From Dehalococcoidia bacterium (GTDB taxonomy: Bacteria; Chloroflexota; Dehalococcoidia; SZUA-161; SpSt-899): a stretch of DNA of 51,156 nt. The translations under genes were made by a program, and so were the position numbers. The stretch is from NCBI GenBank assembly GCA_023271215.1, contig JALPYG010000001.1, positions 1-51,156 on the forward strand, written 5' to 3'. Of this stretch, positions 7,851-30,260 are shown in pieces. The notes beneath the pieces were generated by a model, which saw nothing but the letters and a program-made list of their open reading frames with translations, was not told where the DNA came from and searched no databases. Numbering within the stretch: position 1 is the first letter of the stretch; every line of letters starts with the position of its first letter.

Positions 7851-8078
7851 ATGTTTGGAGCGCAGCAGGTCCACGGCCCGACTCCCCAAGGCGGTTTCGG
7901 CTCAGCACAGGTTACCGGCCCCTCCCCGATGCAGATTGGGGGACCACCGGCCTACCTCCCGATGCAGGCCGTCCCCGTCGGATTCGACATGAACGCTATG
8001 ATGAACATGATCATGATGATCATGATGATGGGCATAATGGTGGGCATGATGAAGCCGATGCTGGAAGGGGTGAGATAG
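7851..8078 (+). CDS. small tail-anchored protein with Met-rich C-terminal helix
   Basis: AAGGAGG SD. C-terminus FDMNAMMNMIMMIMMMGIMVGMMKPMLEGVR. No N-terminal signal-like segment. Confidence 0.7.
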   Translation: MFGAQQVHGPTPQGGFGSAQVTGPSPMQIGGPPAYLPMQAVPVGFDMNAMMNMIMMIMMMGIMVGMMKPMLEGVR

Positions 8079-8113
8079 ACAATCTCAAATAAGAATTGAA
8101 GGAGGTTAGTTCA

Positions 8114-8308
8114 ATGTTCGGAACACAGCAAACAAGGGTTATGCCACAGCAACCCGGGTGGGGGTGGCCTACCGGAGCGATACATGTCCTTCCGGCGCAA
8201 GCCCCGGGCGGATTCGACATGAACGCTATGATGAACATGATCATGATGATCGTGATGATGGGCATAATGGTGGGCATGATGAAGCCGATGATGGAACGCG
8301 TAAAATAA
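8114..8308 (+). CDS. paralogue of 7851..8078 (Met-rich tail)
   Basis: GAAGGAGG precedes ATG 8114. The last ~84 nt are nearly identical to 7979-8062, while the N-terminal half is divergent. Confidence 0.7.
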   Translation: MFGTQQTRVMPQQPGWGWPTGAIHVLPAQAPGGFDMNAMMNMIMMIVMMGIMVGMMKPMMERVK

Positions 8309-8346
8309 AGCATGCCCCTGCGGAAGCAGGGGACGGAGGCGATTCA

Positions 8347-9021
8347 ATGAAGAATCAAAAGAATGACGGATTGCATGGACCACGGCCGACTGGACCAAGG
8401 CCATACGGTCCGCAGCAGGTTATTATTCAGCCGCCCAAGGGGTATGTCCCGCCGCTCCGGAATGAGCTTCAGCCAATCGGAGTGTATAGCATCGACACCG
8501 GCTTCTGGGTCGGCCTGCCAATCGAGGCCTTTACCGAGGCCTTAGTTGTCGCCGAGAGCAAACACGCTGTCGATCGAATTGACGAGCGCGACAAAGTAGA
8601 GGCGAAGATTACGACCGCATCGGAAGTCGGCACTAGGAGGACGGCCTCATTTGAGGTTAGGGATGGTGAGGTCGCCTTCCTCAACCGCATCGTGGTGACA
8701 AGCCCGGCTGAATCCGGCCCTGCCGTCGGGGACATCGTTAGGGTCAATTTCCGCATCTCGAGGTGGGAACATCCCGACGCCCGGATCGGAGAGACGGTAA
8801 ACGAGGATGGTCGCTCCTACTGGTCTGAGAGTAAGGGTACCTTGGCCGCAGACACTTACACTGTCGACCTGCCTGCTCAGGGCGAGCTTGGCGAGGAGCT
8901 GAGGCTGGTTGGCCCAGCCAGGGTTACCCTGGTAGCTGAGCTCGTCGGGGCCGTCGCCGGCGCCGACCTCACCGCTACCCTGACGCCATACGGTCGCAAG
9001 GCGAGACGTCTCGTCGAGTAA
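8347..9021 (+). CDS. hypothetical structural-type protein (225 aa)
   Basis: ATG 8347 follows GGACGGAGG. The longer 8158 start would run antisense-like through the Met-codon repeats of the previous gene. Confidence 0.55.
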   Translation: MKNQKNDGLHGPRPTGPRPYGPQQVIIQPPKGYVPPLRNELQPIGVYSIDTGFWVGLPIEAFTEALVVAESKHAVDRIDERDKVEAKITTASEVGTRRTASFEVRDGEVAFLNRIVVTSPAESGPAVGDIVRVNFRISRWEHPDARIGETVNEDGRSYWSESKGTLAADTYTVDLPAQGELGEELRLVGPARVTLVAELVGAVAGADLTATLTPYGRKARRLVE

Positions 9022-9316
9022 GCTGTCAAAAGCCGAATAAGGGGATTCTATGACCGGCGGTATGAGGAGGGAAGCTCTGACTTCTATCCTTGTAAGCAAT
9101 CCTCGTGTGGACGGCGTGGCTCTGAATGTCGACGGCGCGGTCACCCCCCCGGCCTGCGGCCGGGGGTAGGCCTGCCAGAGCGGCCATTGCCGGCAACACC
9201 TTCGTTGTGGTAGGCCCGGGACAACGGTGGCGGGAGGCTTCGAGCCTCTTTGGGGGCGATGAAGCTTGATATGAAATAGGTTAGAGTTTCATACAGGTGA
9301 ACTCTATTGCCTGCAA

Positions 9317-9353
9317 GGGGGCTAAAGCTGTCGTGGCTTTAAGCCCCCTTTAT
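9317..9353 (+). terminator. intrinsic terminator
   Basis: GGGGGCTAAAGC-tgtcgtg-GCTTTAAGCCCCC followed by TTTATGTTT. Confidence 0.55.
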
Positions 9354-9414
9354 GTTTATAGCTATCGGGCTGGATAGCTTGAAAGCATAGGAACTTTAAT
9401 GTGAGAGATAAGAG

Positions 9415-9909
9415 ATGCCGAACAGAATGCTGACGCCGGAGACCAAGGCTTATCTCTTGGGCTCATTTGCCAGTATCGACGACCTCAATTCCTTTATACC
9501 GCTTGAGGAGAGTATGCCTGAGCCAAGCCTCATGTTGATGGAGCTCGACTTTACCGAGCCTCCCTCAAGTGAAACCCTTGCCGGGCTCAATCAAGCACTC
9601 CTTGAGGCGGGTGTGGATCCCTGGCCGGGTTACGGCCAGATCGTCTTTGCCGATCCAGCAAGCGAGCAGGTAACCTTGGCCTGGACCAAGGGGACGGCAT
9701 GGATGCCGATCATCATCGGGATACTCGCCTTGACTGTCTTCCCGATATTGCTCGGCGGGCTCATCTGGCTGATCATCCCCGAGCCGGTAAAGCAGATGAT
9801 AAATATGGTAGTGATGTTACTGGTGATGATGCTGATGATGAGGATGCTAGCGCCGATGCTCGCCCCTGCCAAAGAGAAGCCCAAAGAAGTTGAGGGAGGG
9901 AGGAGATAA
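9415..9909 (+). CDS. membrane protein with two C-terminal helices, the second Met-rich
   Basis: C-terminal segments WMPIIIGILALTVFPILLGGLIWLII and VKQMINMVVMLLVMMLMMRMLAPMLAPAKEK. Confidence 0.65.
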   Translation: MPNRMLTPETKAYLLGSFASIDDLNSFIPLEESMPEPSLMLMELDFTEPPSSETLAGLNQALLEAGVDPWPGYGQIVFADPASEQVTLAWTKGTAWMPIIIGILALTVFPILLGGLIWLIIPEPVKQMINMVVMLLVMMLMMRMLAPMLAPAKEKPKEVEGGRR

Positions 9910-10106
9910 TGAATGGGTACCCACCGCAGCACTACTATTATTACCCGGCGGAATATCAGCCCCTGTTATTTTCGCAACTCATCGGATTTCTGGTCAATGC
10001 GGTTATAGTGATTGGGTTGGCCTCGACGGCGATCACCATGGTTAGAAAGGTGCTGGCGGGTGAAGAGGTGGAACCGCCTTTCCGATCGCCTTTCTGGGAG
10101 AAGTAA
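9909..10106 (+). CDS. small membrane protein
   Basis: Its ATG overlaps the upstream TAA by one base (TAATG). One central hydrophobic helix, LIGFLVNAVIVIGLASTAITMV. Confidence 0.5.
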   Translation: MNGYPPQHYYYYPAEYQPLLFSQLIGFLVNAVIVIGLASTAITMVRKVLAGEEVEPPFRSPFWEK

Positions 10107-10108
10107 GT

Positions 10109-10639
10109 ATGGCCGTAGATTTGGCAGGTGCCCTGGGTGACGTCTTCTGGGATTTACCTCCCTGGATCACTTATATGCCTGGTTCCGACATCGGCTGCGT
10201 TATCTTTGTGGCCAACCCGACCGATGTGGTAAGAGAATACGCCCTGATGTCTTATCTGTCATCGGAGGGGGCGGTAATCAGCGAGGAATCGGTCACCGTC
10301 TTCGGGCATTCATGGTTCAAGGTTGATCCGGGCGGTTTTGTCAGGCTGCACGGCGCATTTCGCTTTGAGAATACCAATGTCACGCTGACTCTCTCGCTCA
10401 TCGAAAGGGAAAGCGATGAGGAAACCGATGCGGTTTCCACCTTTCTGGCCCAGCCGGCTGCCCCTCTCTGGCCGCAATGGCCCGAGGGGCCGGGTGTTCA
10501 GGAACCTGGGATTTTGCCCGATGGGGGTTTCATGGAGCTCCTTATGATCATGATTACGATGGGAATGGTCTTCCGAATGGCAAGAACCCCAAAAGAGGAA
10601 GAGGAGCGAAAGTTGCTTCCGGCAGGGAGGGGTGAATAA
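10109..10639 (+). CDS. tail-anchored protein with Met-rich C-terminal helix
   Basis: C-terminus GFMELLMIMITMGMVFRMARTPKEEEERK. Confidence 0.65.
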   Translation: MAVDLAGALGDVFWDLPPWITYMPGSDIGCVIFVANPTDVVREYALMSYLSSEGAVISEESVTVFGHSWFKVDPGGFVRLHGAFRFENTNVTLTLSLIERESDEETDAVSTFLAQPAAPLWPQWPEGPGVQEPGILPDGGFMELLMIMITMGMVFRMARTPKEEEERKLLPAGRGE

Positions 10640-11577
10640 TGGGCGGTGGATTCTATATCGAAGGCCGCAGAGGGGGTCAGGACACTCAAGAGTTGACCAT
10701 TATCCGTAACAAGATTGCCGATCTCCACCATGAGGTTACTAATCTTCAGGCGTCCGTCAGCGCGATCGATACCCGGGTAGTTGCTATCGAGAGCATTTTA
10801 ACCAGTGTCCAGGGCGAAGTTACTCTTATTCAGGATAAGGTTACCGATCTTCAAACAGCTGTCAGTGCGGTTGATACCCGGGTAGTTACTATCGAGAGCA
10901 TTTTAACCAGTGTCCAGGGCGAAGTTACTCTTATTCAGGATAAGGTTACCGATCTTCAAACAGCCGTCAGTGCGGTTGATACCCGGGTAGTCACCCTTGA
11001 GAGCACTTTAGCCGGTATCCAGAGCGAAGTTACTCTTATCCACGGTATGGTTACCGATCTTCAAGCAGCCGTCAGCGCGGTTGATACTAAGATAAGTGCC
11101 ATTGAGAGTTCTCTGGCCGCTGTTACCAGCCATATTGATTTCTGGAGCACCCAAGTACCGAAGATTGTTATCACCAGCATAGCGGGTAATCCGGGTTTTC
11201 CCGGGATAAGTGTCTCTGGCTTGCCGTTAGGAGTGGGGATCGTTCGGGTAGTTGCCATGCTCAAGATAAGGGCACTTAAAAACACCTCCGGGATCGACAA
11301 TTTCCTCAAGCAGGATGCTGCCATAGCGGTGATGCTCGCTGGCGGGAGCTGGGGAGTCGACGACACGCCTGCCATAAACTTGGTCAGGGATCAGTGGCAT
11401 GTGATAGGAGGGGTTAAGGAAAGTGGTGATGTCATGATCGGGAATAACGATGTCAAAGGTGTGGTGAGTGGTGACGGTGTTTACCTGCTCCGTGGCAATA
11501 ACATGGCTGCCTCGGGGGATAATCTGGAGCTCTACGACGTGCAGACGGGGCTGCGGGTGTACTTCAGGAAGCCGTAA
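10639..11577 (+). CDS. coiled-coil fibre-like protein with 35-aa tandem repeats
   Basis: The start overlaps the upstream stop. Heptad-like repeats VTDLQTAVSAVDTRVVTIESILTSVQGEVTLIQDK are followed by a globular C-terminal domain. Confidence 0.7.
   Translation: MGGGFYIEGRRGGQDTQELTIIRNKIADLHHEVTNLQASVSAIDTRVVAIESILTSVQGEVTLIQDKVTDLQTAVSAVDTRVVTIESILTSVQGEVTLIQDKVTDLQTAVSAVDTRVVTLESTLAGIQSEVTLIHGMVTDLQAAVSAVDTKISAIESSLAAVTSHIDFWSTQVPKIVITSIAGNPGFPGISVSGLPLGVGIVRVVAMLKIRALKNTSGIDNFLKQDAAIAVMLAGGSWGVDDTPAINLVRDQWHVIGGVKESGDVMIGNNDVKGVVSGDGVYLLRGNNMAASGDNLELYDVQTGLRVYFRKP
10735..11110 (+). repeat. 105-bp in-frame tandem repeat, about 3.6 copies
   Basis: Units start at 10735, 10840, 10945 and 11050. 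Copies 2 and 3 are nearly identical over about 85 nt. Confidence 0.85.
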
Positions 11578-11601
11578 TAAACAGGAAAGGAGGAAGTTGT
11601 A

Positions 11602-11997
11602 ATGAGAGCGCTACTTATCGAAGTTGATTTTGAGACGGGGAAGAGAGCTGGGGGTATAGACCCCAGAGACCCCAATTTGCGCTGTCGTGGCTGGCAAAAT
11701 CTGGACAGCGAGCCAGGACTTGAAATCCGACTGGTCGAGGATGATAGGGACCTGTCCCAGTATGCCGGCGTGCCTGGAGTAACGGTTCTGGAAGGAAAGG
11801 ATGCAATCAATGCAGCAATCCAGGCAAACTTTCCTCCGGGATATAATGTCGTAGATAAAGAGCTGTTACTGGCACATTTGAAAGAGAGGGGTATTTCTCT
11901 TGATCTCTTTGCAGGGCAGAGCCTTGATGACAGGGCAGAAGAGCTGTTTCGGCAAGGGTTTGCGGGGATTGTGGAGGTAAAGCCACAGCTCTTATAA
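11602..11997 (+). CDS. hypothetical protein
   Basis: AAAGGAGG SD upstream of the ATG; soluble composition. Confidence 0.55.
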   Translation: MRALLIEVDFETGKRAGGIDPRDPNLRCRGWQNLDSEPGLEIRLVEDDRDLSQYAGVPGVTVLEGKDAINAAIQANFPPGYNVVDKELLLAHLKERGISLDLFAGQSLDDRAEELFRQGFAGIVEVKPQLL

Positions 11998-12053
11998 ATG
12001 CGGTTTATGGAGTGTCAATCTGGTAGTCAATAGATAGGTGGAGTTGTATAACT

Positions 12054-15000
12054 ATGTCTTTTGGTAGCGTCATCAGGTCTGCTGGTGCACCATACCCTCA
12101 CCATTCTGGTGTGGGTATAGGTGGTGATGCAAATAGAATCTGGCATATACAATACAATGCTCACATGCGTGTTTGCCGAGTCTATGAGCTTTCGACTGTC
12201 GATTTTTCGGTACTTCAGGCTGCTAACTATGACGGGCTTTGGGCTGTGGGAGGAATAGGCGGTGATGCCAGTAGGGTTTGGGCGGGTGCCTGGCGTCGTG
12301 GTAGTCGACATCTGCGTGTAATGGAGTTATCGGCTTCTACATTAGGGCATATAAGAGCGGCGTACGGGTGGAGGAACCTTTCCAGTCGGGGCATTGGTGG
12401 TGATGCAAATGTAATCTGGCACATATGGCAGAATATGGTCGGAGGCGGATTTTATCTGGCAGAACGTTCAGTCGATAATCTGTCAGTAATAAGATCAGTT
12501 GGCTGTCCATGGTGGACTGCTGTAGGGGGTAACACCAAGGTTATCTGGGCTGGCGCACTTCATGAGCTGTCAACAGTCGATTTTTCGACCATAAGAGCAG
12601 CTGGCTCTCCTGGGGGGTCTGGTGTGGGTGGTGATGAGAAGACAATCTGGTCCTGTTCAGGGAGTCAGGTCTTTGAGATCAATGCGGCAGTGCTCCTGGA
12701 GCCGATAGTTACTACCAATCCTGCTACAGAAATTAGAAGAACCAGCGCTAGGGCCCACGGAGAGATAACCGACGTAGGCGCTGAAATGGCCAATGAGCGG
12801 GGCTTTGAGTGGGGAACCACCCCTGGCTTGTACCCCAACAGTGTAACTGAGACGGGGACTTTTGGAGTAGGGCCCTACTCTTTGACCTTAACCGGGCTTC
12901 CCAGCATTGTCACAATCTATTATCGTGCCAAGGCGCGCAATCCCGTAGATTGGGGATACGGCGACGAACTGACCTTCTTTACCGTAGACCCACCTGCAGT
13001 CACTACTCGATCTATTGCAGACCTCACCCCAACCAGCGCTACCGGTAGAGGGTTCATAACCGACACAGGTGGAATAAACTGCGATGAACGGGGTTTCGAC
13101 TGGGGGATCTCTCCCGGCGTGTATATCAATACTGTAACCGAGGCCGGCTCTTTTGAAGCTGGTGCCTATTCTCTGAGCTTAATCGGGCTTCCCGTTGACA
13201 CCATAATCTATTATCGCGCCAGGGCACACAACCCTAGTGGATGGTCGTATGGTAATGAGGTGTCCTTCACCACCGGGTTGGTAGAAGTACCTACAGTGGA
13301 GACTCTCGAGGTCACGGACATTACTCACGTCAGCGCTGTTGCCAGTGGAAAAATACTCTCCACCGGTGGGGAGGATTGTGAGGAATATGGATTTGAGTGG
13401 GGTGTTTCACCTAACCTAACAGACAGCATGACCGGCATTGGAGCTTGGAAAGAACTGACGTTCAGTGAGGTCTTACGTGATCTTCTCCCGGGGACTACAT
13501 ATGTCTTCCGTGCCAAGGCCCGCAATTCTGCAGGATGGGGTTTTGGCCCTTTGCTATCGTTTACCACTATAGGCCGTCCTGCGGTTCTTACCCGGGCCGT
13601 CACAGGGATTACACCGACCAGTGCTAGAATCCACGCGTTTATAGCCGACACCGGAGGTCCTGGATGGCGTGTTCTCGAGCGGGGTTTTGAGTGGGGGTTT
13701 TCTCCTGGCGTATATATTGACAGTTTAACCGAGGAAGGGACTTTTGGAGCAGGTCGCTACTCTTTATCTTTAACTGGGCTTCCTAGTTTCGTTACGGTCT
13801 ACGTCCGTGCCAAGGTCCGTAATGTAGTTGGGTGGGCATATGGGGGTACGATACAGTTCATTACTGTGCACGTGCCAGTGTTGAGCACCTTACCGCCCAC
13901 ACAGGTTGGGCCAACCAGCGCTATAGCTCGGGGAAGGATAATTGATATAGGCTACGATTCCCCCACCGAGCGTGGTTTTGATTGGGGGACCGAGCCGGGT
14001 GCGCTGATTAACAGCGTGACCGAAACTGGGAGTTTTGGGGCAGGACCTTTCTCCTTGCCTTTGACGGGGCTACCTGAGGATTCTTGGATCTATTACCGAG
14101 CCAAGGCAAAGAACGCTGCGGGCTGGGGATATGGTGGCGTTGCCCCGCCGGAACCGGGAGAAGAGCCTCCTCCCGGTGAGGCAGGCGATGTGGAGAGCTT
14201 CCACACAGCAATTCTTCCTACAGTGGTTACTCATCCTGCCAGTGAGATTGCCGGAACTACTGCTATGGGTAATGGAGCAATAACTCACTCAGGCTTTGTT
14301 TACTGCACTGAATGGGGCTTTGAATGGGGGATTGAGCCAGAAGTGTATCCGAATAGTGTAACTGCAACAGGGGATTTTGAAGTAGGACTCTTCTCCAGAT
14401 TCCTAACCGGCCTCCCCGACGACACCACTATCTATTATCGAGCTAAGGCGCATAACAGTGCTGGGTGGGGTTACGGGTCTGAGGAGTTTTTTGTCACTGA
14501 GAAGATAGTACCTCCTGAAGTAAACACCTATGATGCTGTAGACATTAGAGCATTTACCGTCATCGGACGGGGAGAGATAACCCACTGGGGCTGGGAGACT
14601 TGCACCGAGAGAGGATTTGAATGGGGGACATCTCCCGGCGTGTATCCCAATATTGTGACTGACAGCGGTTCTTTTGAAGAAGGAGGTTATTCCAGGATCA
14701 TAACCGGGCTTCCCACGGACACTACAATCTATTACCGTGCTAGGGCCCGTAACAGCGCTGGGTTGGGTTACGGTATGGAGAGAACCTTCAAAACTCGCTT
14801 ACTGATTCTTCCCTCGGTTATGACCTACGACGCTACACATGTTACCGAAGTCGAGGCTATGGGTCAAGGATTTATCATTGATGACGGTGGAGAGGATTGT
14901 GTGGAGCGTGGTTTTGAATGGGGGGAATCTTCAGGCGTTTATCCTAACGACGTAACCCAGACAGGTGCTTTTAGAACAGGGCACTACTCTCTACTTTTAG

Positions 15001-17657
15001 CCAATCTTCCCAGCTTCGTCACAATCTATTACCGTGCCAAAGCCCGCAATTCCCTAGGTCGGGTATACGGTGATGAAAAGACTTTCGTAACCCAACACTA
15101 CCCCGCGGTTACCACAGGTTCTGCTCTAAACATCACAAAGAACAGCGCTGCAGGCACTGGTAGGATAGTGGACATAGGCCATTACCTCTGTGACGAGCGG
15201 GGATTTGAATGGGGTACTGAGCCCGGGGTGTATCCGAATAGTGTAACCGAGACAGGGACTTTCGGCGTGACCCCCAGGCGTGAGCATTACACCCTGGCGT
15301 TAACCAATCTCCCCAGCTTTGTTAGAATCTATTACCGCGCCAAGGCACGTAATCTTACTGGATGGGGATATGGGCAGGAGGTATCATTCATTACAGTATA
15401 CCCTCCCGTAGTTTCCACCCGGAGACCCACCTGGATACACGGAACTGTTGCTACAGGCCATGGGAATATATCGGATGTCGGTCATGAACTTGCCAGCGAG
15501 CGGGGGTTTGAGTGGGGGACTGAACCCGGTGTATACCCCAATAGTGTAACCGAGACTGGCTCTTTCGGTGTGAACGAATGGCATCAAACTTACACCTTGG
15601 TGTTAACTGGTCTTCCTGTTAACACTGTAATCTACTATCGAGCTAAGGCTCGTAACAGTGCTGGGTGGGGATATGGAAATGAGGTAGCTTTTTGGAGCAC
15701 GCGTCTCCCCGTAGTGGCAACTATTGGCCCAGCACGGACCCGTGAAGAGCGTCGATGGATGACGTGGATTGCTGCAACCAAAGCCCGTGTCTGGGGGCGA
15801 ATAGTCTATACAGGTAGTGGAAGATGGGTTGGGGGGAGGCTGGTGGATTGGGAGAAATGCACTGTGCGGGGATTCGAATGGGGCACTGAACCCGGCGTGT
15901 ATCCCAATAGTGTAATTGAAAAAGGGAATTTTGGTAGCAATAGGCGTTTCCCTTTCCGGTACGAGCTTCTGCTCACTGGTCTTCCCCCAGATACCAAAAT
16001 CTACTTCCGGGCCAAGGCTAAAAACTCAGTCGGGTGGGATTATGGTGATGAGAGAACTTTCTCCACTGCGCATGCCCCTGCAGTAGTTACTCATAGCGCT
16101 ACAGGCATCAGAGCAACCAGCTTCACCGGTCAGGGAGAGATAACCGATACCGGCAGTGATTGGGAGAGATGCAGTGAGCGGGGTTTTGAGTGGGGGTTTT
16201 CTCCTGGCGCATACGTTGACAGTTTAACCGAGACCGGCACCTTTGAAAAGGGGCCTTATTCTCGACTCTTAACCGGACTTCCTAGTAACACTACGATTTA
16301 TTACCGTGCGAGGACCCGCAACACCGTGGGGTGGGCCTACGGTAACGAAAGGTCCTTTGTCACTCTGGAATTATTCCTACCTACTGTGAAGACTGGAGTT
16401 GTTCAAGAAACAGAGACCGTATACGTTACCGACATCACTGGTACCACGGCTGTTGCCCACGGGACCATAGTAGATGACGGCAATGAATACTGTGATGAGC
16501 GAGGCTTCGATTGGGGAACCTCTCCCGGCGTGTACACGAACAGCGTAACGGAGACGGGGGTTCTCGCCTTTGGCAGCGGGCCTTACTCCCTGACTTTGAC
16601 CGGGCTTCCTGATGGTACCACCATCTTCTTCCGAGCCAAAGCGCGCAATTCCCTTGATTGGGGCTACGGCGAGGAGACGTCTTTTACTACTCCCAAGATA
16701 GTGATCCCCACAGTGAGCACAGGAGATGCCACAGACATCGATGGAACCCGTGGTCTTATTCACGGAGCAATAACTCATACAGGCTGGGAGACTTGTACTA
16801 AGCGAGGTTTTGATTGGGGATTCTCTCCCGGTGTCTACCCTAACAGTGAGATTGAGACTGGGGCTTTTGGAACAGGGGCTTTCATGGCATGGTTAACAGG
16901 GCTTCCCTATAATACCGCAGTCTATTATCGCGCCAAGGCACGTAACTCCATCGGATGGGGTTACGGTTCTGAGAAAACCTTTAATACCGCACACGTCCCT
17001 ACAGTAACAACCCAGGATGCCACAGACGTCACGCGAAACAGTGCCACTGGCCACGGAAACATAACCGATGTGGGCAGGATGACCTGCGACCGACGTGGTT
17101 TCGATTGGGGACTGCACTCTGGTTTGTATATAAAGCGTACACTCAGCCTGGGGACCTTCGACGTAGGGGCCTATACCCGTACATTGCACGACCTCCCTAC
17201 TGGTGCTAGGATCTATTATCGGGCCATAGCTCGCAATCCTGTAGGGTGGAGTTATGGTAATGAATTGTTCTTCTTCACCCTGGGATTAGAACCCCCCACG
17301 GTAATTACCAAGAAGGCTGTAGACATCACCACAAACAGCGCTCTAGCCTTTGGAGAGGTAGTTGACACCGGTGGAGAGGATTGTGATAAGTGGGGCTTTG
17401 AGTGGGGAACCACCCCTGGCTTGTATCCCAACAGTGTAACCGAGACAGGGATTTTTAAGGGAGGAATCTTTTTGAAGGCTTTAACAGGGCTTCCTGATAA
17501 TACTACGATTTATTTCCGTGCCAAGGCTCGTAACCCTGCCGCAAACCCTACCGGATGGGGTTATGGGAGTGAGTTAAGTTTTACTACTCTGTCTGCGGCC
17601 GCACCCTTGGTCGGCGGCCTCCCGGCTGTCAGGGCGGCGGAGATGATCCTGGTATGA
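12054..17657 (+). CDS. giant surface/fibre protein: N-terminal propeller-like repeats plus 16 FN3/Ig-like ~95-aa repeats
   Basis: Five GIGGDxxxIWH-type ~45-aa repeats sit in the first ~210 aa. They are followed by 16 units that each end in (I/V)YYRAKARNxxGWGYG..F.T. Confidence 0.85.
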   Translation: MSFGSVIRSAGAPYPHHSGVGIGGDANRIWHIQYNAHMRVCRVYELSTVDFSVLQAANYDGLWAVGGIGGDASRVWAGAWRRGSRHLRVMELSASTLGHIRAAYGWRNLSSRGIGGDANVIWHIWQNMVGGGFYLAERSVDNLSVIRSVGCPWWTAVGGNTKVIWAGALHELSTVDFSTIRAAGSPGGSGVGGDEKTIWSCSGSQVFEINAAVLLEPIVTTNPATEIRRTSARAHGEITDVGAEMANERGFEWGTTPGLYPNSVTETGTFGVGPYSLTLTGLPSIVTIYYRAKARNPVDWGYGDELTFFTVDPPAVTTRSIADLTPTSATGRGFITDTGGINCDERGFDWGISPGVYINTVTEAGSFEAGAYSLSLIGLPVDTIIYYRARAHNPSGWSYGNEVSFTTGLVEVPTVETLEVTDITHVSAVASGKILSTGGEDCEEYGFEWGVSPNLTDSMTGIGAWKELTFSEVLRDLLPGTTYVFRAKARNSAGWGFGPLLSFTTIGRPAVLTRAVTGITPTSARIHAFIADTGGPGWRVLERGFEWGFSPGVYIDSLTEEGTFGAGRYSLSLTGLPSFVTVYVRAKVRNVVGWAYGGTIQFITVHVPVLSTLPPTQVGPTSAIARGRIIDIGYDSPTERGFDWGTEPGALINSVTETGSFGAGPFSLPLTGLPEDSWIYYRAKAKNAAGWGYGGVAPPEPGEEPPPGEAGDVESFHTAILPTVVTHPASEIAGTTAMGNGAITHSGFVYCTEWGFEWGIEPEVYPNSVTATGDFEVGLFSRFLTGLPDDTTIYYRAKAHNSAGWGYGSEEFFVTEKIVPPEVNTYDAVDIRAFTVIGRGEITHWGWETCTERGFEWGTSPGVYPNIVTDSGSFEEGGYSRIITGLPTDTTIYYRARARNSAGLGYGMERTFKTRLLILPSVMTYDATHVTEVEAMGQGFIIDDGGEDCVERGFEWGESSGVYPNDVTQTGAFRTGHYSLLLANLPSFVTIYYRAKARNSLGRVYGDEKTFVTQHYPAVTTGSALNITKNSAAGTGRIVDIGHYLCDERGFEWGTEPGVYPNSVTETGTFGVTPRREHYTLALTNLPSFVRIYYRAKARNLTGWGYGQEVSFITVYPPVVSTRRPTWIHGTVATGHGNISDVGHELASERGFEWGTEPGVYPNSVTETGSFGVNEWHQTYTLVLTGLPVNTVIYYRAKARNSAGWGYGNEVAFWSTRLPVVATIGPARTREERRWMTWIAATKARVWGRIVYTGSGRWVGGRLVDWEKCTVRGFEWGTEPGVYPNSVIEKGNFGSNRRFPFRYELLLTGLPPDTKIYFRAKAKNSVGWDYGDERTFSTAHAPAVVTHSATGIRATSFTGQGEITDTGSDWERCSERGFEWGFSPGAYVDSLTETGTFEKGPYSRLLTGLPSNTTIYYRARTRNTVGWAYGNERSFVTLELFLPTVKTGVVQETETVYVTDITGTTAVAHGTIVDDGNEYCDERGFDWGTSPGVYTNSVTETGVLAFGSGPYSLTLTGLPDGTTIFFRAKARNSLDWGYGEETSFTTPKIVIPTVSTGDATDIDGTRGLIHGAITHTGWETCTKRGFDWGFSPGVYPNSEIETGAFGTGAFMAWLTGLPYNTAVYYRAKARNSIGWGYGSEKTFNTAHVPTVTTQDATDVTRNSATGHGNITDVGRMTCDRRGFDWGLHSGLYIKRTLSLGTFDVGAYTRTLHDLPTGARIYYRAIARNPVGWSYGNELFFFTLGLEPPTVITKKAVDITTNSALAFGEVVDTGGEDCDKWGFEWGTTPGLYPNSVTETGIFKGGIFLKALTGLPDNTTIYFRAKARNPAANPTGWGYGSELSFTTLSAAAPLVGGLPAVRAAEMILV

Positions 17658-17673
17658 GGTAACAGGAGGTGCG

Positions 17674-18948
17674 ATGAGATATTCGGTGATTTCCAAAGGA
17701 CTGTCTCTATCCCAGATGGAAACAGAGGTTCTGAAGGCCGGCGGCAAAAGTGTAAAGAAGGCGGCCCTTGTGGACGAACTCTTCTGTGAGCTGGACGAAC
17801 CATCCGCCGAGAAGCTGTCTACTATTCCAGGGCTGAAGGTAAGGCCGGTGAGGGTTATAACACCGACCTCACTGATAGCGGACCCGGTATTACCCGTGGG
17901 GATGCCGGCGGCGCAGCAGATAATGACCGTCTCCGATGTTTTCCAGACGATGCGCTCTTACTTTATGCCACCGCTCAGCGGCATGGGACTCACCGTGGCT
18001 GTGCTCGACAGCGGAATAAGAAAGACGCATGAATCCCTCAAAAGGAAAATCGTCTATGAATTCAACGCTACTGAAGCCCCAGGCCACGACGATATCTACG
18101 GACACGGCACCGGGGTCGCTTACCTCATCGCCGGCGGCACGGGTGGGGTCAATGGGAGGGGCGGCGTCTCCCCCGGCGCTTCGATAATAAACATCAAGGT
18201 GCTCGATGATGAGGGAATTGGCACCGAGGAGACGGTGGTTATGGGGATTGATAAGGTGTGCCAACTGGCCCAAGATGCCCGCGAGGCCGGCCGGTGGCCC
18301 ACCGACGAGATGTATCCTAACATAATCAATGTCAGTATCGGAGCGGAGGACACCGGTGAAGTGGACGACCCAATGCGAATCGCCTGCCGGAAGGCCATCG
18401 AGGATTACGGCATCGATGTAATCGCCGCTGCAGGGAATGCCGGGCCGAGGAGGACTACAATGATGTTACCCGCCGCTGAGCCGGAAGTAATCGCCGTTGG
18501 GGGCGTCATAACCGGAGATCTCCAGATATGGGAGAGATCATCGAGAGGTCCCACGGTGCTGGGGGATACCAAGCCCGACTTCGTCTTCTGGGCGACTTCG
18601 CTGGAGGTTGCAAGTCACAGGGGCGACGACCGGTACGATGAGAAGTCAGGGACTAGCTTTGCCGCACCGATGGTCTCCGGACTGGCAGGACTCCTCTGGG
18701 AGACCGGCAGAAGAAGCTACGGGGAGGCCTGGACTTTCCGGTGGACGAGGGCCAGGGAGTTTGCCCCATTCTTCAGTATTAAACCAGCCGATGCCCCGAT
18801 GATGAAGGGCAACACTTACGGCTACGGCATGCCGGCTATGGGAACGATGGTGGGGATGATCGACAGACCTGAGCCAGTGTTTGATGTAACAAGGATGCTC
18901 CCCATGATCATGATGATGGGAATGATAGGGGTAATCGGTCGAAGATGA
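17674..18948 (+). CDS. subtilisin-like (S8) serine protease with Met-rich C-terminal anchor
   Basis: Catalytic-triad contexts VAVLDSGI, GHGTGVA and SGTSFAAPMVSG. C-terminus VTRMLPMIMMMGMIGVIGRR. Confidence 0.85.
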   Translation: MRYSVISKGLSLSQMETEVLKAGGKSVKKAALVDELFCELDEPSAEKLSTIPGLKVRPVRVITPTSLIADPVLPVGMPAAQQIMTVSDVFQTMRSYFMPPLSGMGLTVAVLDSGIRKTHESLKRKIVYEFNATEAPGHDDIYGHGTGVAYLIAGGTGGVNGRGGVSPGASIINIKVLDDEGIGTEETVVMGIDKVCQLAQDAREAGRWPTDEMYPNIINVSIGAEDTGEVDDPMRIACRKAIEDYGIDVIAAAGNAGPRRTTMMLPAAEPEVIAVGGVITGDLQIWERSSRGPTVLGDTKPDFVFWATSLEVASHRGDDRYDEKSGTSFAAPMVSGLAGLLWETGRRSYGEAWTFRWTRAREFAPFFSIKPADAPMMKGNTYGYGMPAMGTMVGMIDRPEPVFDVTRMLPMIMMMGMIGVIGRR

Positions 18949-19373
18949 TGAGGAAGAAACCCATGACTTCAACATTGGCAATCCCACAGTTACAGGTGCT
19001 TGGTGAGGTCACCGGTAACATACTCATCACGGTGCCGATAACGAACAAGGGCCGTGCCTGTGATGCGGTGGTGAATCTCTACATCTTTGAGGGGTCCTGG
19101 CTGCCTGGGGCTGGTGATCTCCTGGCAAGTTACTCACAGACTGTTTCGTTCCTTGAAGGGGAACAGAAGGGGGTGGTGTTCGCTCATACAGTGATACAGA
19201 CCGACGCGAGCCGCCGGGACGTTGGCGTTGAGGTGGTGGTCGGCGACTCGGTTAAGGCCTCTGCCCAATTTGATGATGTTTATCATGTGCCTACTGGGCC
19301 GGGGTTGATCGATAACATGATGATGATTATGATGATGGCGGTTATGATGACGGTAGTTCAAATAGGTGAATAA
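18945..19373 (+). CDS. CARDB/Ig-like beta-sandwich protein with Met-rich C-terminal anchor
   Basis: ATGA overlap with the protease stop. VPITNKGRACDAVVNLYIFEG... is paralogous to 19527..20039. Tail LIDNMMMIMMMAVMMTVVQIGE. Confidence 0.65.
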   Translation: MMRKKPMTSTLAIPQLQVLGEVTGNILITVPITNKGRACDAVVNLYIFEGSWLPGAGDLLASYSQTVSFLEGEQKGVVFAHTVIQTDASRRDVGVEVVVGDSVKASAQFDDVYHVPTGPGLIDNMMMIMMMAVMMTVVQIGE

Positions 19374-19529
19374 ACAAATGGAGGTAAAAAATGAGTGGGG
19401 TAGTGGCTCCTGCACTCGTCCTACCCTGGACGAGAATAAGAACAAATGGAGGTAAAAAATGAGTGGGGTAGTGGCTCCTGCACTCGTCCTAGTCTGGACG
19501 AGAATAAGAACAAATGGAGGTGAAAAATG
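19374..19529 (+). repeat. 68-bp tandem direct repeat, 2.3 copies, each carrying SD+ATG
   Basis: Copies at 19374-19441 and 19442-19509 differ at only 2 positions. A partial third copy provides the SD and ATG of 19527..20039. Confidence 0.9.
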
Positions 19530-20039
19530 AATACACTAGTGCCACAGCAGGTCTGGATTCCAGCACCCCCTCCGGTCCGACTCCCTCCCCCGGATGTCTG
19601 GATTCCTGTGATTCCTGAACGCCCCCGGATTCAGGCATGGACACCGCTCGGCTGGGTCCCACTGGCAACGGGGCCGACGTTTCCTCCCGGGACAAGAATC
19701 AAGATAGAGGTCCCTATAACCAACAACAGCAACGAGAGTTTCAGCACTCGTATAAGGGTGGGGATCTTCGAGGGGAGTATACTCCCGGGGCGCGGGGACC
19801 GTATAGCAACGATCGACTCATCGTGGCAGACGCTAACTGTCGGGCAAACGCGGGACTTTTCCGTGACACACACTACCAGACTGAGAGAAGGTGTAGAGCG
19901 CCGGGACGTCAATATAGAGGTGCAGTACCTGGATGCCGGCAGGGTGACCTCGGGTGGAGAACGGGAGTGGGATGATCTCTTCTGGGTCGAGGAAAAGATC
20001 GAGTTTGTGATAGGTGAACCAACAGTCACGGCGGCGTAA
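19527..20039 (+). CDS. CARDB/Ig-like beta-sandwich protein
   Basis: VPITNNSNESFSTRIRVGIFEGSILPG... aligns with 18945..19373. It has a Pro-rich N-terminus. Confidence 0.65.
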   Translation: MNTLVPQQVWIPAPPPVRLPPPDVWIPVIPERPRIQAWTPLGWVPLATGPTFPPGTRIKIEVPITNNSNESFSTRIRVGIFEGSILPGRGDRIATIDSSWQTLTVGQTRDFSVTHTTRLREGVERRDVNIEVQYLDAGRVTSGGEREWDDLFWVEEKIEFVIGEPTVTAA

Positions 20040-20180: not shown

Positions 20181-20558
20181 ATGAGTGATGAGCTTCGCAT
20201 CGAAGGGCAGGGGGGGTCGCCTCCTCCGGAGGGGGACATAGGGACACTGCTGGCAAAACTTGAAGAGGCCTTCAGTCCCAGGATCAGCCACGGGAAGGCC
20301 ACCGGCACACTGGTGGTGGCTCTTGATCTTAGAGGCCTTGCTGGAAGGACAGACCTAGAGGTCTGGCTCAAGAGCTCCGGGGCAGCTGACTTTTTCTTGG
20401 AGGGCTCGGTGGACGGTAAAAACTGGAGGTCCATTGAGATAATCTCGCTTACCGCAGCGGGGGAGAGGCACGAGGGCTACCGGAACGCTTATCCCGTGGT
20501 GAGGGTGTGGACCACGGCGGGGAACGAGAATGAGATTGAACTCTGTGCTTCGAGGTGA
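20181..20558 (+). CDS. discoidin/galactose-binding-like jelly-roll protein
   Basis: GAADFFLEGSVDGKNWRS...GYRNAYPVVRV is paralogous to 20657..21160. Confidence 0.55.
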   Translation: MSDELRIEGQGGSPPPEGDIGTLLAKLEEAFSPRISHGKATGTLVVALDLRGLAGRTDLEVWLKSSGAADFFLEGSVDGKNWRSIEIISLTAAGERHEGYRNAYPVVRVWTTAGNENEIELCASR

Positions 20559-21875: not shown

Positions 21876-22138
21876 CTGAGTTATCCATCATACTGGGGTC
21901 CGGTCTGGTAGTAGCCTTTATCGGGGCGGTCTACGCCTATGGCAAACTGACCCAGAAGATCGAACACATAGGTACAACAACCGATAAGCTAACCCTAAAG
22001 TTCGATAACCACTTGAAGCACGAAACCAACGTGGTGCAAACAGATCTATCCAATCTCAAGACCGAGATCGCCCTATTAAACGCGCAGATGGAAAACCTCA
22101 CTAAAGTGATTGAGTTGATCCGGAAAGACAGATCATGA
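21872..22138 (+). CDS. N-terminally anchored coiled-coil protein
   Basis: LSIILGSGLVVAFIGAVYAY is followed by a heptad-rich segment. Confidence 0.5.
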   Translation: MTELSIILGSGLVVAFIGAVYAYGKLTQKIEHIGTTTDKLTLKFDNHLKHETNVVQTDLSNLKTEIALLNAQMENLTKVIELIRKDRS

Positions 22139-22812
22139 AAACGTATCTTGAACCCTTTGAAATAGACCTCCTGGAAAAGGCTGCCACCTGTGTCAGGGAC
22201 CAGTTGTTGATCAGACTTCTAGCCAGATTAGGCTGTCGCATCAGTGAGGCCCTGGCCCTGGAGGTAAAGGACATAGATTTTACTCGCGGCCAAGTGAGGA
22301 TCGAGCACCTCAAGAGCTGCCCTCTTCTTCTCTGCCCTCACTGTGACGGTCGCCTGGGGAAGAGTCATGCCTTCTGCCCCAAGTGCGGGGCGAAGGTGGA
22401 GCAGGCGGTTATCAGAGTCAAGGAGCACATCAGGGTGCGTACCCTTCCCATAGACGGCAGTACCTTGAACATGTTGCGCGACTACATCGACCGTGGTGGG
22501 GCGATTCCTAAAAACGGTAAGGTACCTATTTTTGGAATTACCCGTACCCACGGATGGAAGATTGTCAAGGAGTGCGCCGAGAGAGCCGGATTAGGAAAAT
22601 TGATTAACCCTGAAACAGACAGGGAGCACAATATCTCGCCTCACCGGCTGAGGGATGCCTTTGCGATCAAGGCAATCAAGGTGGATGACTCAGGCGATGG
22701 ACTGCGTCTCCTACAGGAACACCTTGGGCACGCCAGCTTTAATACGACCGCCAAATATCGCAAGATTAGCGGTCAGGAAAGTAGAGAGTGGTACGACAAA
22801 CTGTGGAATTAA
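22135..22812 (+). CDS. minimal tyrosine recombinase (catalytic domain only) with zinc-ribbon insertion
   Basis: Catalytic contexts LGCRISEAL (Arg I), HRLRDAF (H-x-x-R) and LGHASFNTTAKY (His plus Tyr). Insert CPHCDGRLGKSHAFCPKCG. There is no N-terminal arm- or core-binding domain. Confidence 0.85.
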   Translation: MKTYLEPFEIDLLEKAATCVRDQLLIRLLARLGCRISEALALEVKDIDFTRGQVRIEHLKSCPLLLCPHCDGRLGKSHAFCPKCGAKVEQAVIRVKEHIRVRTLPIDGSTLNMLRDYIDRGGAIPKNGKVPIFGITRTHGWKIVKECAERAGLGKLINPETDREHNISPHRLRDAFAIKAIKVDDSGDGLRLLQEHLGHASFNTTAKYRKISGQESREWYDKLWN

Positions 22813-25200: not shown

Positions 25201-25234
25201 AGCCGCGTCAAATACTGTCGCCTAGAGGAATGAC

Positions 25235-29432: not shown

Positions 29433-29870
29433 ATGCCTATTCAACAACAATTGGCAGAGATCACCTCGATTGAGGTCCCGCCGGAGATTCAGGTGGGAAA
29501 GGTCCTCCCCATCAGGGTGCAGGGCACGATAGGCATTCCTCTTGTGGGGTATCTATTTGCGGGTCTTCTTGAGCCACCGGCGTATAACACCTACAGGAGC
29601 TTCAGATCTACCCCGATACTTACCTTTTTGCCACCAAGTTTCGACATTGTCATGGAACTTGATGTGCAGATGGACAACGTCCTAGGGGTAAATCAGCTTC
29701 GAGTCGATCTGGTAAGCGGGCAGACGATTGCCACAAGAAGGGTTGAGATTTTAGTCAAAGCACCTGAGGTGACGCCCACTCCACCGGATATCATGGGCCC
29801 GATGATGGGCATAATAGGGATAGCACTGGTGGCCGGGTTAATGGCTCGGATGATAAAACCAGAGGAATAG
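29433..29870 (+). CDS. Ig-like protein with Met-rich C-terminal anchor
   Basis: C-terminus PDIMGPMMGIIGIALVAGLMARMIKPEE. Confidence 0.6.
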   Translation: MPIQQQLAEITSIEVPPEIQVGKVLPIRVQGTIGIPLVGYLFAGLLEPPAYNTYRSFRSTPILTFLPPSFDIVMELDVQMDNVLGVNQLRVDLVSGQTIATRRVEILVKAPEVTPTPPDIMGPMMGIIGIALVAGLMARMIKPEE

Positions 29871-29888: not shown

Positions 29889-30260
29889 ATGCCTACAGTC
29901 GCAGAACAGTTGGCGAGCGTTTGGGACTATATTAGTGGTGCGGGAACTCTCGTAGAAGACCACGCGATTGCAGTCTGGAGAGAAGGCAGATTCCACCTGT
30001 ATTCGACATTCGTACCTATCGACGAAATTGGATACTTTCGCTTTAGTGAAGCACCCTGGCTCTACGCTACCCAGGATTGCGTACTGACTTATAAAGGGAT
30101 GACGACGCCGCTCTACACAGGATGGAACAACATCGCGTGGTTAGTAGACGAAGAGCCGCCGGCGACGTGGATGGATATGCTCATGCCAATAATCATGATA
30201 GGGATGATGGGATACGTGATGTGGCCGATGATTAAAGGGCTTTTCAAGAAGGATAAATAA
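29889..30260 (+). CDS. tail-anchored protein with Met-rich C-terminal helix
   Basis: GGGAGGGAGG SD. C-terminus WMDMLMPIIMIGMMGYVMWPMIKGLFKKDK. Confidence 0.6.
   Translation: MPTVAEQLASVWDYISGAGTLVEDHAIAVWREGRFHLYSTFVPIDEIGYFRFSEAPWLYATQDCVLTYKGMTTPLYTGWNNIAWLVDEEPPATWMDMLMPIIMIGMMGYVMWPMIKGLFKKDK

Follow-up and report, generated by a model that had tools for sequence, protein, structure and literature searches.

We found that eight plus-strand genes of the window (the whole 51,156-nt stretch of Dehalococcoidia DNA that was analysed) encode proteins with an uncharged C-terminal helix in which 15-57% of the residues are Met, as read from the ORF list and a coordinate check. This Met-rich module is present on at least five unrelated families: small tandem proteins, a two-helix protein in which it forms the second helix, proteins of ~160 aa and ~190 aa, and an S8 protease. 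On balance it is probable that the segment is a C-terminal membrane-anchor helix, used as a common module on a subset of the proteins of an integrated, self-replicating and probably virus-like element, where it would anchor and co-assemble the proteins of a non-tailed particle or of its assembly site. Anchor helices made mostly of methionine appear to be undescribed; the tails fall outside every Pfam and NCBIfam model, and a phrase search of roughly 8 million papers found no mention of methionine-rich transmembrane (TM) helices. The eight genes and their helices are:

7851..8078, plus strand: p75, family A; Gly/Pro/Gln-rich, near-uncharged N-terminal part, Asp cap, Met-rich helix at nt 7989-8051 (12/21 Met), then KPMLEGVR
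8114..8308, plus strand: p64, tandem paralogue of p75; Met-rich helix at nt 8219-8281 (11/21 Met)
9415..9909, plus strand: p164, family B1; ordinary TM helix at residues 93-125 (3% Met), Met-rich helix at nt 9793-9840 (7/16 Met), basic tail APAKEKPKEVEGGRR
10109..10639, plus strand: p176, family C; ~135-residue N-terminal domain, Met-rich helix at nt 10523-10573 (5/17 Met), charged tail ending ERKLLPAGRGE
17674..18948, plus strand: S8 subtilase (Pfam PF00082, 4e-35); variable linker to a Met-rich C-terminal helix at nt 18886-18939 (6/18 Met)
18945..19373, plus strand: p142, N-terminal domain paralogous to p170; Met-rich C-terminal helix at nt 19314-19367 (8/18 Met)
29433..29870, plus strand: p145, accessory protein; moderately Met-rich helix (MGPMMGIIGIALVAGLMARMIKPEE) at nt 29769-29846 (4/26 Met; best window 5/20), the weakest member
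29889..30260, plus strand: p123, accessory protein; Met-rich C-terminal helix (MDMLMPIIMIGMMGYVMWPMIKGLFKKDK) at nt 30156-30233 (8/26 Met)

All eight positions agree with the initial annotation, as does the start of p64 at ATG 8114. With a background Met frequency of 2.3%, the binomial probability per tail ranges from 3e-3 to 5e-15, and the Met fraction of the anchor helices reaches two thirds (at most 12 of 18 residues). The uncharged stretch of the tails has a median length of 25 residues (IQR 22-26). The layout first proposed was an acidic residue, a Met helix and a charged end. Its acidic part held up, with Asp or Glu at the helix start or a few residues from it in seven of the eight window tails and an Asp/Glu cap in 108 of 120 tails, but its charged end is inconstant: Lys or Arg follows the helix in most of the eight, the post-helix end differs between tails (Lys/Arg, Glu or nothing), and most S8-family tails stop at a free C-terminus without a charged residue. 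A semi-conserved acidic lead-in, T/G-D-M/W-T/S-S, directly precedes the helix.

As had been claimed, a Kyte-Doolittle scan, which is a heuristic, detected no signal-like hydrophobic segment at the N-terminus of any of the eight proteins (10-residue maxima of 0.5-2.0 in all eight, for windows starting in the first 30 residues). The N-terminal parts are mutually dissimilar after low-complexity masking, except for the p75/p64 pair and for p142 and the tail-less p170, and the tails are, as first described, common to otherwise unrelated proteins clustered around an S8 protease with a tail of its own. Because p170 is a tail-less paralogue of p142, the tail is a separable module. A tail-anchored topology fits part of the set: p75, p64, the S8 protease, p142, p145 and p123 have a single TM helix no more than ~30 residues from the C-terminus and no second one (the protease being marginal on an insertion scale), but p164 has an ordinary TM helix before the Met-rich one and is predicted to be a two-helix hairpin rather than tail-anchored, and in p176 a charged tail of ~21 residues follows the helix. 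Acidic residues on the N-side and basic residues on the C-side suggest an N-out orientation; since the large N-terminal domains come without signal peptides, such an orientation is difficult to explain.

The tail DNA of p64 and p75 is 92% identical over 105 nt, and the N-terminal halves of the two proteins have diverged. Strong Shine-Dalgarno sites (AAGGAGGT) lie 7-8 nt upstream of both genes. P0125 and P0131 are homologues of p75, and tandem paralogues of the pair are found at the same position in six related loci (L001, L003, L006, L014, L020 and L058).

The initial annotation had allowed that Met-rich TM helices might be a general property of the host's membrane proteins. They are not: 0 of 760 TM-like segments from 682 kb of host-like chromosomal DNA are at least 25% Met, versus 101 of 426 segments from related element loci (Fisher p = 2e-49). 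Within one element, Met-poor ordinary TM helices adjoin the Met-rich ones, and each element has C-terminal helices of both kinds, only some being Met-rich. Families A, B2 and C have in common the positional motif D-x-x-S-x-M-M-P-M-I/L-M-M-x-M-M-x-G/A (z of 4-6 versus shuffles), which the S8 tails share more weakly. Real tails score far above composition-matched shuffles, and a small-residue motif, G/A-x-x(x)-G, is conserved after the Met run. The Met-rich feature is under selection, we argue, because it is conserved, specific and present on at least five protein families.

Distant homologues, found by searches with the N-terminal domains only, retain a hydrophobic helix at the C-terminus, followed by a charged end, and the number of Met per 16 residues runs from 1 to 10; in some, ordinary Leu/Val/Ala or Ile-type helices replace the Met-rich ones at the same place, and some lack the lead-in. 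Since these homologues carry ordinary helices at the same position, the C-terminal membrane anchor is the conserved function, and Met-richness appears to be a lineage- and family-specific form of it. Insertion-scale sums, computed with approximate scale values, do not distinguish the tails from control TM-like segments (p = 0.9), a control that includes non-TM hydrophobic stretches; the small and mid-size tails are similar to it. On the same approximate scale, the S8 tails are marginally hydrophobic (median +5.3 kcal/mol) and may not span the membrane on their own. What a poly-Met helix does in a membrane beyond what Leu, Ile and Val do is the biophysical question that these tails pose.

A tail-profile search of 5.8 billion proteins gave 201 candidates and 13 weak matches, all from the same families, in a setting where composition correction and the word index leave tail-only searches powerless. 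The DNA pattern for MMPMIMM occurs in 16 stretches of IMG/VR, and in-frame tails are found only on one contig, which also holds an S8 relative; one relative is listed in that database. We found no close relatives in deposited phage or plasmid records or among PDB sequences.

The tails mark the structural-looking module of a widespread Dehalococcoidia element. This module is the conserved middle part of the integrated element, which we found at 36 loci in species-representative Dehalococcoidia genomes; the same five tail-bearing families recur across the syntenic loci. We found no earlier description of the element. Its other genes in and around the module are:

4423-4764, plus strand: DnaJ-domain protein, upstream of the module
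4761-5684, plus strand: clamp-loader-like AAA+ ATPase (phrog_168, 1e-10), upstream of the module
5834-6763, plus strand: C2H2 zinc-finger protein with Met/Gln-rich regions, upstream of the module
8347..9021, plus strand: 224-aa core protein, disordered N-terminal arm (~residues 1-44) and jelly-roll beta-sandwich; no Met tail
9909..10106, plus strand: p65, a small protein whose single TM helix is ordinary (3.6% Met)
10639..11577, plus strand: 312-aa protein, coiled coil of 105-nt (35-aa) repeats and a C-terminal non-repeat region; fibre-like
12054..17657, plus strand: 1867-aa repeat protein, N-terminal GIGGDANxIWH repeats, then ~18 Fn3-like repeats; adhesin-like
19527..20039, plus strand: p170, paralogue of p142 without the tail (37% identity over 60 aa by blastp, E = 2e-6)
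22135..22812, plus strand: tyrosine recombinase with an inserted zinc ribbon (Pfam PF00589, 1e-16), directly downstream of the module

The recombinase has homologues in 23 loci and is the predicted integrase of the element, which further carries a primase-like DUF3854 protein, a clamp, DUF192/ArdC and an SprT-like domain. Host genes occupy 40-51 kb of the window, and at least ~40 kb of the element lies within it; no tRNA genes, Rfam matches or att repeats that could mark its ends were found in the window. The sole ATPase of the module region is the clamp-loader-like one, with no packaging or assembly ATPase there. An anti-phage defence system was considered and rejected, PADLOC having returned only generic subtilase and coiled-coil matches.

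The 224-aa core protein has 88 homologues, Dehalogenimonas isolates among them. Its AF2 model (pLDDT 82.6) is a beta-sandwich with a disordered 44-residue arm, and the best Foldseek matches are mostly single-jelly-roll capsid proteins, at modest scores (TM-score 0.25-0.5) and with non-capsid jelly rolls mixed in; it is a candidate structural or capsid-like protein. Homologues of p164 are found in 19 loci and those of p176 in 24, the N-terminal domain of p176 alone having 108 representative homologues. The p65 family, with 0-1 Met in other loci, provides an internal control within the module. The 1867-aa repeat protein has neither a TM helix nor a signal peptide.

The S8 domain scores 121.9 bits against PF00082 (cutoff 21.8). 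Asp112, His144, Ser328 and Asn219 are invariant in 63 sequences, and sequence motifs predict Asp112/His144/Ser328 to be the catalytic triad and Asn219 the oxyanion residue. The protease has more than 1000 homologues; the tail is kept, at ~60% identity, in 120 of 120 of the matches listed, and a Met-rich tail is also present in a divergent S8. Residues 1-58 are predicted to form a pro-domain-like beta-alpha-beta-beta-alpha-beta fold in an AF2 model, of which the N-terminal domain alone is usable (pLDDT 43 for the whole) and which is uninformative on tail docking.

In the reading that we favour, the tail-bearing proteins would be cytoplasmic products that lack export signals and enter the membrane by the Met-rich helix. 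The shared helix would gather these proteins and the protease at one membrane site, where the helices would pack together, helped by their flexible Met side chains and by the small-residue motif that follows the Met run; the assembly site could then pass into a transmissible particle, as its membrane or its hydrophobic core. Small tandem proteins of the p75/p64 type, with their strong ribosome-binding sites, may be its major component, as are, in filamentous and budding viruses, coat proteins that reside in the membrane before assembly, and the tethered S8 protease may process neighbouring structural proteins. By a permutation test on a sample dominated by close relatives we found no element-wide co-variation of Met content, and the test thus gives no demonstration of co-evolution between packing partners.

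The initial annotation had weighed two ideas, a C-terminal sorting signal that the subtilase could help to process, and membrane components of a lipid-containing virion. The jelly-roll, coiled-coil and repeat proteins, together with presumably strongly expressed small hydrophobic proteins, make a context that seems to fit the second better. The first, in which the tail would be cleaved or transferred by the co-tagged S8 enzyme, has lost ground and now seems quite unlikely. It draws on a tripartite layout with an acidic lead-in right before the helix, the arrangement of lead-in, helix and often basic end that LPXTG/sortase, PEP-CTERM/exosortase, PGF-CTERM/archaeosortase and GlyGly-CTERM/rhombosortase systems have on unrelated proteins near a candidate enzyme, and also on a positional motif common to several families, strict co-encoding with the protease, and the restriction of Met-richness to some C-terminal helices per element, as for a selective label. 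However, the Met composition is, as had been suspected, unlike that of known signals: sorting-signal models gave no match in NCBIfam (E up to 10, eight proteins and two isolated tails) or Pfam (E up to 0.1, eight proteins). The heuristic scan saw no N-terminal signal peptides, and no sortase, exosortase, archaeosortase or rhombosortase was found among ~40 window proteins scanned against Pfam or in the Pfam lists of L001, L003 and L058. The inconstant post-helix end, the relatives with ordinary helices at the same position, some without the lead-in, and the hairpin of p164, where the Met-rich helix is the second arm and precedes a conserved basic tail, all speak against a sorting signal. Another unlikely reading has the helices anchor the subunits of a non-viral transfer or secretion device, such as a new conjugation-like system of a wall-less bacterium, with a mycosin-like S8 protease; known Dehalococcoides and Dehalogenimonas have no peptidoglycan wall. 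ArdC-N, DUF3854 and SprT-like domains, all present here, are known mainly from conjugative plasmids and elements, and it is because of ArdC-N and DUF3854 that such a device keeps some probability. No capsid, portal or terminase matches were obtained among the scanned window proteins, and the best named NCBIfam match of the protease is the T7SS mycosin TIGR03921; mycosins are C-terminally anchored. Yet the score of 114.3 bits is far under the family cutoff of 278.75, neither the window nor the related loci, by their Pfam lists, showed a VirB4, VirD4, FtsK or relaxase-type protein, and a jelly-roll protein with a disordered N-terminal arm and the fibre-like and adhesin-like proteins suit a particle better.

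Two further explanations concern the methionines themselves. That the Met runs work through sulfur chemistry and not as anchors, be it as ligands of Cu(I) or another metal or as scavengers or oxidation-sensitive switches, is very improbable. The Met-rich domains that we found in the literature are copper-related (e.g. CueO), and the hosts are strict anaerobes in which Met oxidation is of little cost. But copper-binding proteins use MxxM/MxxxM loops with His or Asp, unlike the uncharged hydrophobic C-terminal stretches of 22-26 residues found here, Leu, Val or Ile substitutes for Met at the same positions in relatives, and the module has no visible metal-handling genes. The chance of an artefact, either true genes on the opposite strand, where CAT repeats would read as His, or a functionless nucleotide or compositional bias, is close to negligible. 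His-rich minus-strand ORFs do run across four of the eight tails (8020-8313 and 8111-8404 at the small proteins, 18646-18987 at the S8 gene and 19134-19445 at p142). We rejected them as genes on the plus-strand evidence: long syntenic genes, the Pfam-verified S8 among them, read in frame into the tails, hundreds of homologues have a stop directly behind the helix, and the plus-strand Shine-Dalgarno sites are strong. Against a bias, adjacent TM helices of the same genes are Met-poor and real tails beat composition-matched shuffles by far.

A more specific proposal, which we regard as doubtful though arguable, is that the Met-rich helix acts as a selective code deciding which proteins co-assemble or enter the particle. 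Only proteins whose anchors have a D-cap, M-M-P-M-I-M-M and G-x-x-G would be drawn in by Met-mediated packing or escorted by an element-encoded factor, possibly the DnaJ protein acting with the zinc-finger protein, which has a Met/Gln-rich region itself. Those of the element's proteins that have ordinary anchors would be left out, and the S8 tail would be a docking peptide rather than an independent anchor. If true, membrane proteins would here be sorted by side-chain chemistry, a principle that would be new. The flexible Met side chain is the classic explanation of promiscuous hydrophobic binding by the Met-rich grooves of SRP54/Ffh and Get3; in the present case it is the client helix, and not the chaperone, that bears the Met-rich surface. 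A single C-terminal helix without a signal peptide, implying post-translational insertion, is likewise the mark of tail-anchored proteins, from which the element differs in having one family with a two-helix hairpin and one with 20-30 residues after the helix. T7SS mycosins are, like the S8 protease, subtilases with a C-terminal membrane anchor among the membrane proteins of a machine; the protease differs in its Met-rich, marginally hydrophobic anchor and in having no N-terminal signal peptide and no ESX/T7SS components beside it.

The closest parallels to the membrane-anchor reading come from filamentous and budding viruses, in their coat and membrane proteins (Pf3/M13-type inovirus coat, SSV1 VP1, pleolipovirus VP3/VP4). 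These too are small and look abundant, with an acidic or uncharged N-terminal part, one hydrophobic helix and a short basic end; several virion proteins are each anchored by one helix before assembly, and the genes sit together in a single module of an element that is temperate and carries an integrase. The Pf3 coat protein, like the small proteins here, has no signal peptide. The element differs in its Met-dominated helices, its size above 40 kb, its jelly-roll protein and its subtilase, and it has no sequence or PHROG match to these viruses and no pI/Zot-type assembly ATPase.

A precedent for non-tailed viruses in the same host class is provided by the IME1 viruses of Dehalococcoides and Dehalogenimonas, which are integrated or episomal and for which budding or filamentous particles have been proposed (bioRxiv 10.64898/2026.09.15.751708). 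They are 21-28 kb long and are defined by a pI/Zot-like (PF05707) ATPase with five TM families after it, and by a serine resolvase, an archaeal-type primase-helicase and a 5' tyrosine recombinase; their central module holds several small hydrophobic TM proteins and CARDB-type and C-terminally anchored proteins, with a 'PEP-CTERM' match reported, and the preprint makes no mention of methionine richness or a protease (bioRxiv 10.64898/2026.09.15.751708). Both are integrated and have clusters of small hydrophobic proteins. In contrast to IME1, our element has no pI-like ATPase and no resolvase, carries the S8 protease, DnaJ, clamp loader, clamp, DUF3854 and DUF192/ArdC, has its integrase mid-element and a primase-like gene of the DUF3854 type, and is at least ~40 kb long. 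Compared by description, membership in IME1 was rejected on hallmark genes, there being no Zot match in the window or related loci. Recognition of non-tailed viruses in Dehalococcoidia is just beginning. The type strain of Dehalogenimonas alkenigignens, which is in culture, also carries the element, separately from the 36 loci, and the predictions made here are therefore directly testable in it.

The eight plus-strand open reading frames singled out in the initial annotation are all present and end in the Met-rich C-terminal tails described there. Met content of the tail helices is highest in p75, one of two small tandem proteins (12 of 21 residues), and lowest in p145, the weakest case (4 of 26), with per-tail binomial probabilities from 3e-3 to 5e-15 against a background of 2.3% Met. 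Both small genes, p75 and p64, have a ribosome-binding site (AAGGAGGT) 7-8 nt 5' of the ATG, and a repeat finder assigned the tail-coding sites of all eight genes to one DNA repeat family, D5. Two paralogues differ in having the tail (p142) or lacking it (p170), which shows that the Met tail is a separable module. Over 105 nt, the tail-coding DNA of p75 and p64 (7973-8077 vs 8203-8307) is 92% identical despite strongly diverged N-terminal halves, which points to gene conversion or else to the tail being very strongly constrained.

Three controls agree that the tails are more than an effect of composition or chance. Within the module, the first TM helix of the two-helix protein p164 has 3% Met, against 32% in the stretch spanning its second helix, and the ordinary helix of the small protein p65 has 3.6%. 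For comparison with host-like DNA we used 80 chromosomal neighbourhoods (682 kb, overall Met 2.3%) from metagenomic relatives of the window's pyrF; because these come from related organisms rather than the window's own genome, they serve as a proxy for the host proteome. None of the 760 TM-like segments in this host-like proxy reached 25% Met (maximum 23.5%, median 0), against 101 of 426 in 513 kb of element loci, 69 of the 101 being C-terminal (Fisher p = 2e-49); the observation thus survives the first of the two refuting conditions set in the initial annotation, that Met-rich TM helices are general in the organism's membrane proteome. In the third control, an HMM built from one family's tails was used to score the tails of other families against composition-matched shuffles. 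Families A (the small tandem proteins), B2 (a further tail-bearing family) and C (the p176 type) scored each other 4-6 z above shuffles in both directions, S8 protease tails stood at z = 1.8-3.3 against A and B2, and the second helix of the two-helix family gave mostly weak signals; these z-scores are descriptive, because sequences within each family are related. We consider it unlikely that the tails are an artefact.

The tails share a pattern. Of 120 tails, 108 have Asp or Glu directly before the uncharged stretch, and T/S-rich residues are often included. This stretch usually measures 22-26 residues (median 25), with a core of M-M-P-M-[ILV]-M-M-x-M-M and either a small-residue motif, G/A-x-x(x)-G, or a second M-P-M. 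The helix is followed by Lys/Arg in 67 tails, by Glu in 27 and by the free C-terminus in 24, mostly those of S8 proteases. Family C proteins end past the Met helix in a conserved charged tail with the motif ERKLLPPGR[ED]. This tail reads EERKLLPAGRGE in the window (10580-10636) and recurs in family C of L005, L006, L019, L023 and L143.

At E below 1e-10 there are more than 1000 homologues of the S8 protease. The best 120 all end in a Met-rich tail; they are mostly 414-428 aa long and mostly 57-62% identical to the window's protein, four closer relatives reaching 84-100%. Scanning one genome per GTDB species revealed 36 element loci, labelled Dehalococcoidia, Dehalococcoidales or Dehalogenimonas, two of them only as 'Chloroflexi MAGs'. 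They include one complete chromosome and several MAGs with two or three copies, and the element is complete in the Dehalogenimonas alkenigignens type strain, where it lies at 1745446-1766033 of KQ758903.1. One relative is catalogued in IMG/VR; none was found among deposited phage and plasmid records.

In the window, nearly all genes from about 4.4 to about 39.5 kb lie on the plus strand, and from 40 kb there follow minus-strand chromosomal genes for pyrF, a GNAT acetyltransferase, an enoyl-CoA hydratase and a group II intron reverse transcriptase. The gene order of the element is conserved in the three loci compared.

Conserved gene order of the element in three loci (L001, L003 and L058), with the window's own DnaN-like gene.
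1. HTH regulators, Gp3-like protein, DUF3854 primase-like protein
2. DnaJ, AAA+ ATPase, C2H2 zinc-finger protein
3. MazE-like protein (2 of 3 loci)
4. Two or three small Met-tail paralogues
5. Protein of 195-236 aa
6. Two-helix protein (about 165 aa), followed by a TM protein (about 57 aa)
7. Met-tail protein of about 190 aa
8. Variable proteins
9. S8 protease
10. Three to five small proteins, ending with a Met-tail protein (about 160 aa)
11. Integrase, then DUF192/ArdC-N, then protein of about 178 aa
12. Cargo where the fetched locus reaches: Thoeris (L001), Fic (L003); DnaN-like clamp in L001
Window 32238-33536: DnaN-like gene

The AAA+ ATPase resembles a clamp loader (phrog_168, 1e-10) and is therefore grouped with the clamp as replication machinery. 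Downstream of DUF192/ArdC, L001 (16117-18970) and L002 carry a Thoeris-like set of three ThsB-TIR genes and a SIR2/STALD gene, and L003 (19917-21071) a Fic protein, as defence or toxin cargo. The C2H2 zinc-finger protein (window 5834-6763, with homologues in L003, L006, L014 and L022) adjoins the DnaJ and AAA+ genes and has Met/Gln-rich low-complexity regions such as MQQMMQMFG..PGM; that it binds the Met-rich tails is conceivable, as pure speculation. A protein of 1867 aa (12054-17657) combines N-terminal GIGGDANxIWH repeats with about 18 Fn3-like repeats, each roughly 97 aa long, and its position in related loci is taken by proteins of 200-380 aa. Between the Met-tail module and the integrase lie two paralogues, p125 (20181-20558) and p180 (20618-21160), 40% identical over 73 aa and with no family match.

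We searched exhaustively with the N-terminal domain of p176 alone, leaving out the tail, and recovered 108 homologues, down to 27% identity. Nearly all of the 62 near-full-length homologues examined end in a hydrophobic helix followed by charged residues, and Met in that helix varies continuously from 1-3 per 16 residues (P0318, P0301, P0241) to 10 per 16 (P0235, P0285, P0295). The small protein of the divergent locus L139, GEIFAALGPILMLVVLGVMLAGMGKGLTKE, shares its skeleton with the Met-rich form, Met being replaced by Leu and Val. All tails are Met-poor in L139 and L142 and mixed in L141 and L143; in L144, a locus of a different type with its own S8, they are Met-rich, including that of the protease. 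That the p176 homologues and L139 keep the helix at varying Met content points to a C-terminal membrane anchor as the conserved function, and from the same comparison Met-richness appears to be a derived state, particular to certain lineages and families. Each element has ordinary C-terminal helices (the 57-65-aa family) alongside Met-rich ones, and element-wide co-variation of Met content found no support in a permutation test. On an approximate membrane-insertion scale, small and mid-size tails score much like control TM-like segments, and S8 tails are marginal (median +5.3 kcal/mol), so the protease may depend on partner helices. L144 (Ga0315274_10000438, 65.7 kb) may be a second element type using the same anchors; it encodes a Met-tailed S8 of 452 aa, Met-tailed p176 homologues, DUF192, Big_2, a weak holin-like match and proteins of 990 and 1239 aa.

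On the best-supported reading, the Met-rich tail would serve the proteins of a particle or an assembly site as a shared helix for anchoring and co-assembly. The element would be temperate, non-tailed and virus-like, and the S8 protease would be its co-localised maturation protease. The confident model (pLDDT 82.6) of a 224-aa core protein, which has 88 homologues, is a jelly-roll that carries a disordered 44-residue arm at the N-terminus. Among its best fold matches, capsid proteins of the single-jelly-roll type predominate (picornavirus VP3, birnavirus VP2, and nano-, tymo-, sobemo-, luteovirus and CRESS-DNA virus coats), at modest scores and with cellular jelly rolls interspersed, so the model is only suggestive of a capsid-like protein. 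Until they assemble, the virion proteins of filamentous and budding viruses all sit in the membrane by a single helix; the major one is small, acidic or neutral in its N-part and basic at its C-end. By this analogy, these viruses are the closest functional parallel to the present element. Viruses of this type, IME1, are described from Dehalococcoides and Dehalogenimonas in a recent preprint (bioRxiv 10.64898/2026.09.15.751708). The present element differs from IME1 in its gene set and lacks the pI/Zot-like ATPase and the resolvase that define IME1, and would therefore be a distinct family of analogous design.

The anchor and co-assembly reading has two main rivals: a genuine sorting signal that is cleaved, S8 being its processing enzyme, and a non-viral transfer device. 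The former, in the manner of LPXTG or PEP-CTERM, was favoured in the initial annotation and fits less well than the alternative offered there, membrane components of a lipid-containing virion: the tails match no sorting-signal model in Pfam or NCBIfam, permissive thresholds included, so that the second refuting condition of the initial annotation is survived as well, and a heuristic scan shows no apparent signal peptides in the tail-bearing proteins. A PADLOC scan of the module proteins returned generic matches only. The Met-rich domains found in the literature searched are soluble and copper-handling. Metal or redox chemistry of the Met is unlikely here. We found no description of Met-rich transmembrane helices in the literature searched, nor one of the element family. 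The tails would be a compositional and sequence variant of the C-terminal membrane anchors of mobile-element structural proteins.

The window holds several further repeats and insertions. An iteron-like array at 1040-1808, in which a 32-nt unit (GTGGTGTCGGGTGAAGCGAAGTGAAGGCAGTG) recurs seven times within 107-nt repeats, sits in an ORF-poor stretch of high GC skew (800-2540) and is a candidate for the element's replication origin. An intein with a LAGLIDADG homing endonuclease (26506-29310) interrupts a gene whose match to a SprT-like domain is weak; uninterrupted homologues of that gene in related loci are about 510 aa long. Repeats at 33842-37071 and 35548-38914 belong to two families. The first, a 49-nt intergenic unit, AGCCCGACCCTGGGCAAGTCGGGA...GTCTGCCCGGAAAGGAG, occurs in six copies and contains an inverted repeat and the ribosome-binding site; five of the six end 5-10 nt (in one case about 60 nt) ahead of the start of a small plus-strand gene. 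Together with the second family (52 nt, four copies), these units look like repeated regulatory cassettes. A 68-nt tandem duplication (19373-19530; 2.3 copies, 96% identical) sits precisely between the p142 stop and the p170 start. Duplicated gene starts or segments at 25229-25364 and 25995-26130 (90% identical) and at 35190-35522 and 37966-38325 (77-93%) point to recent internal duplications within the element.
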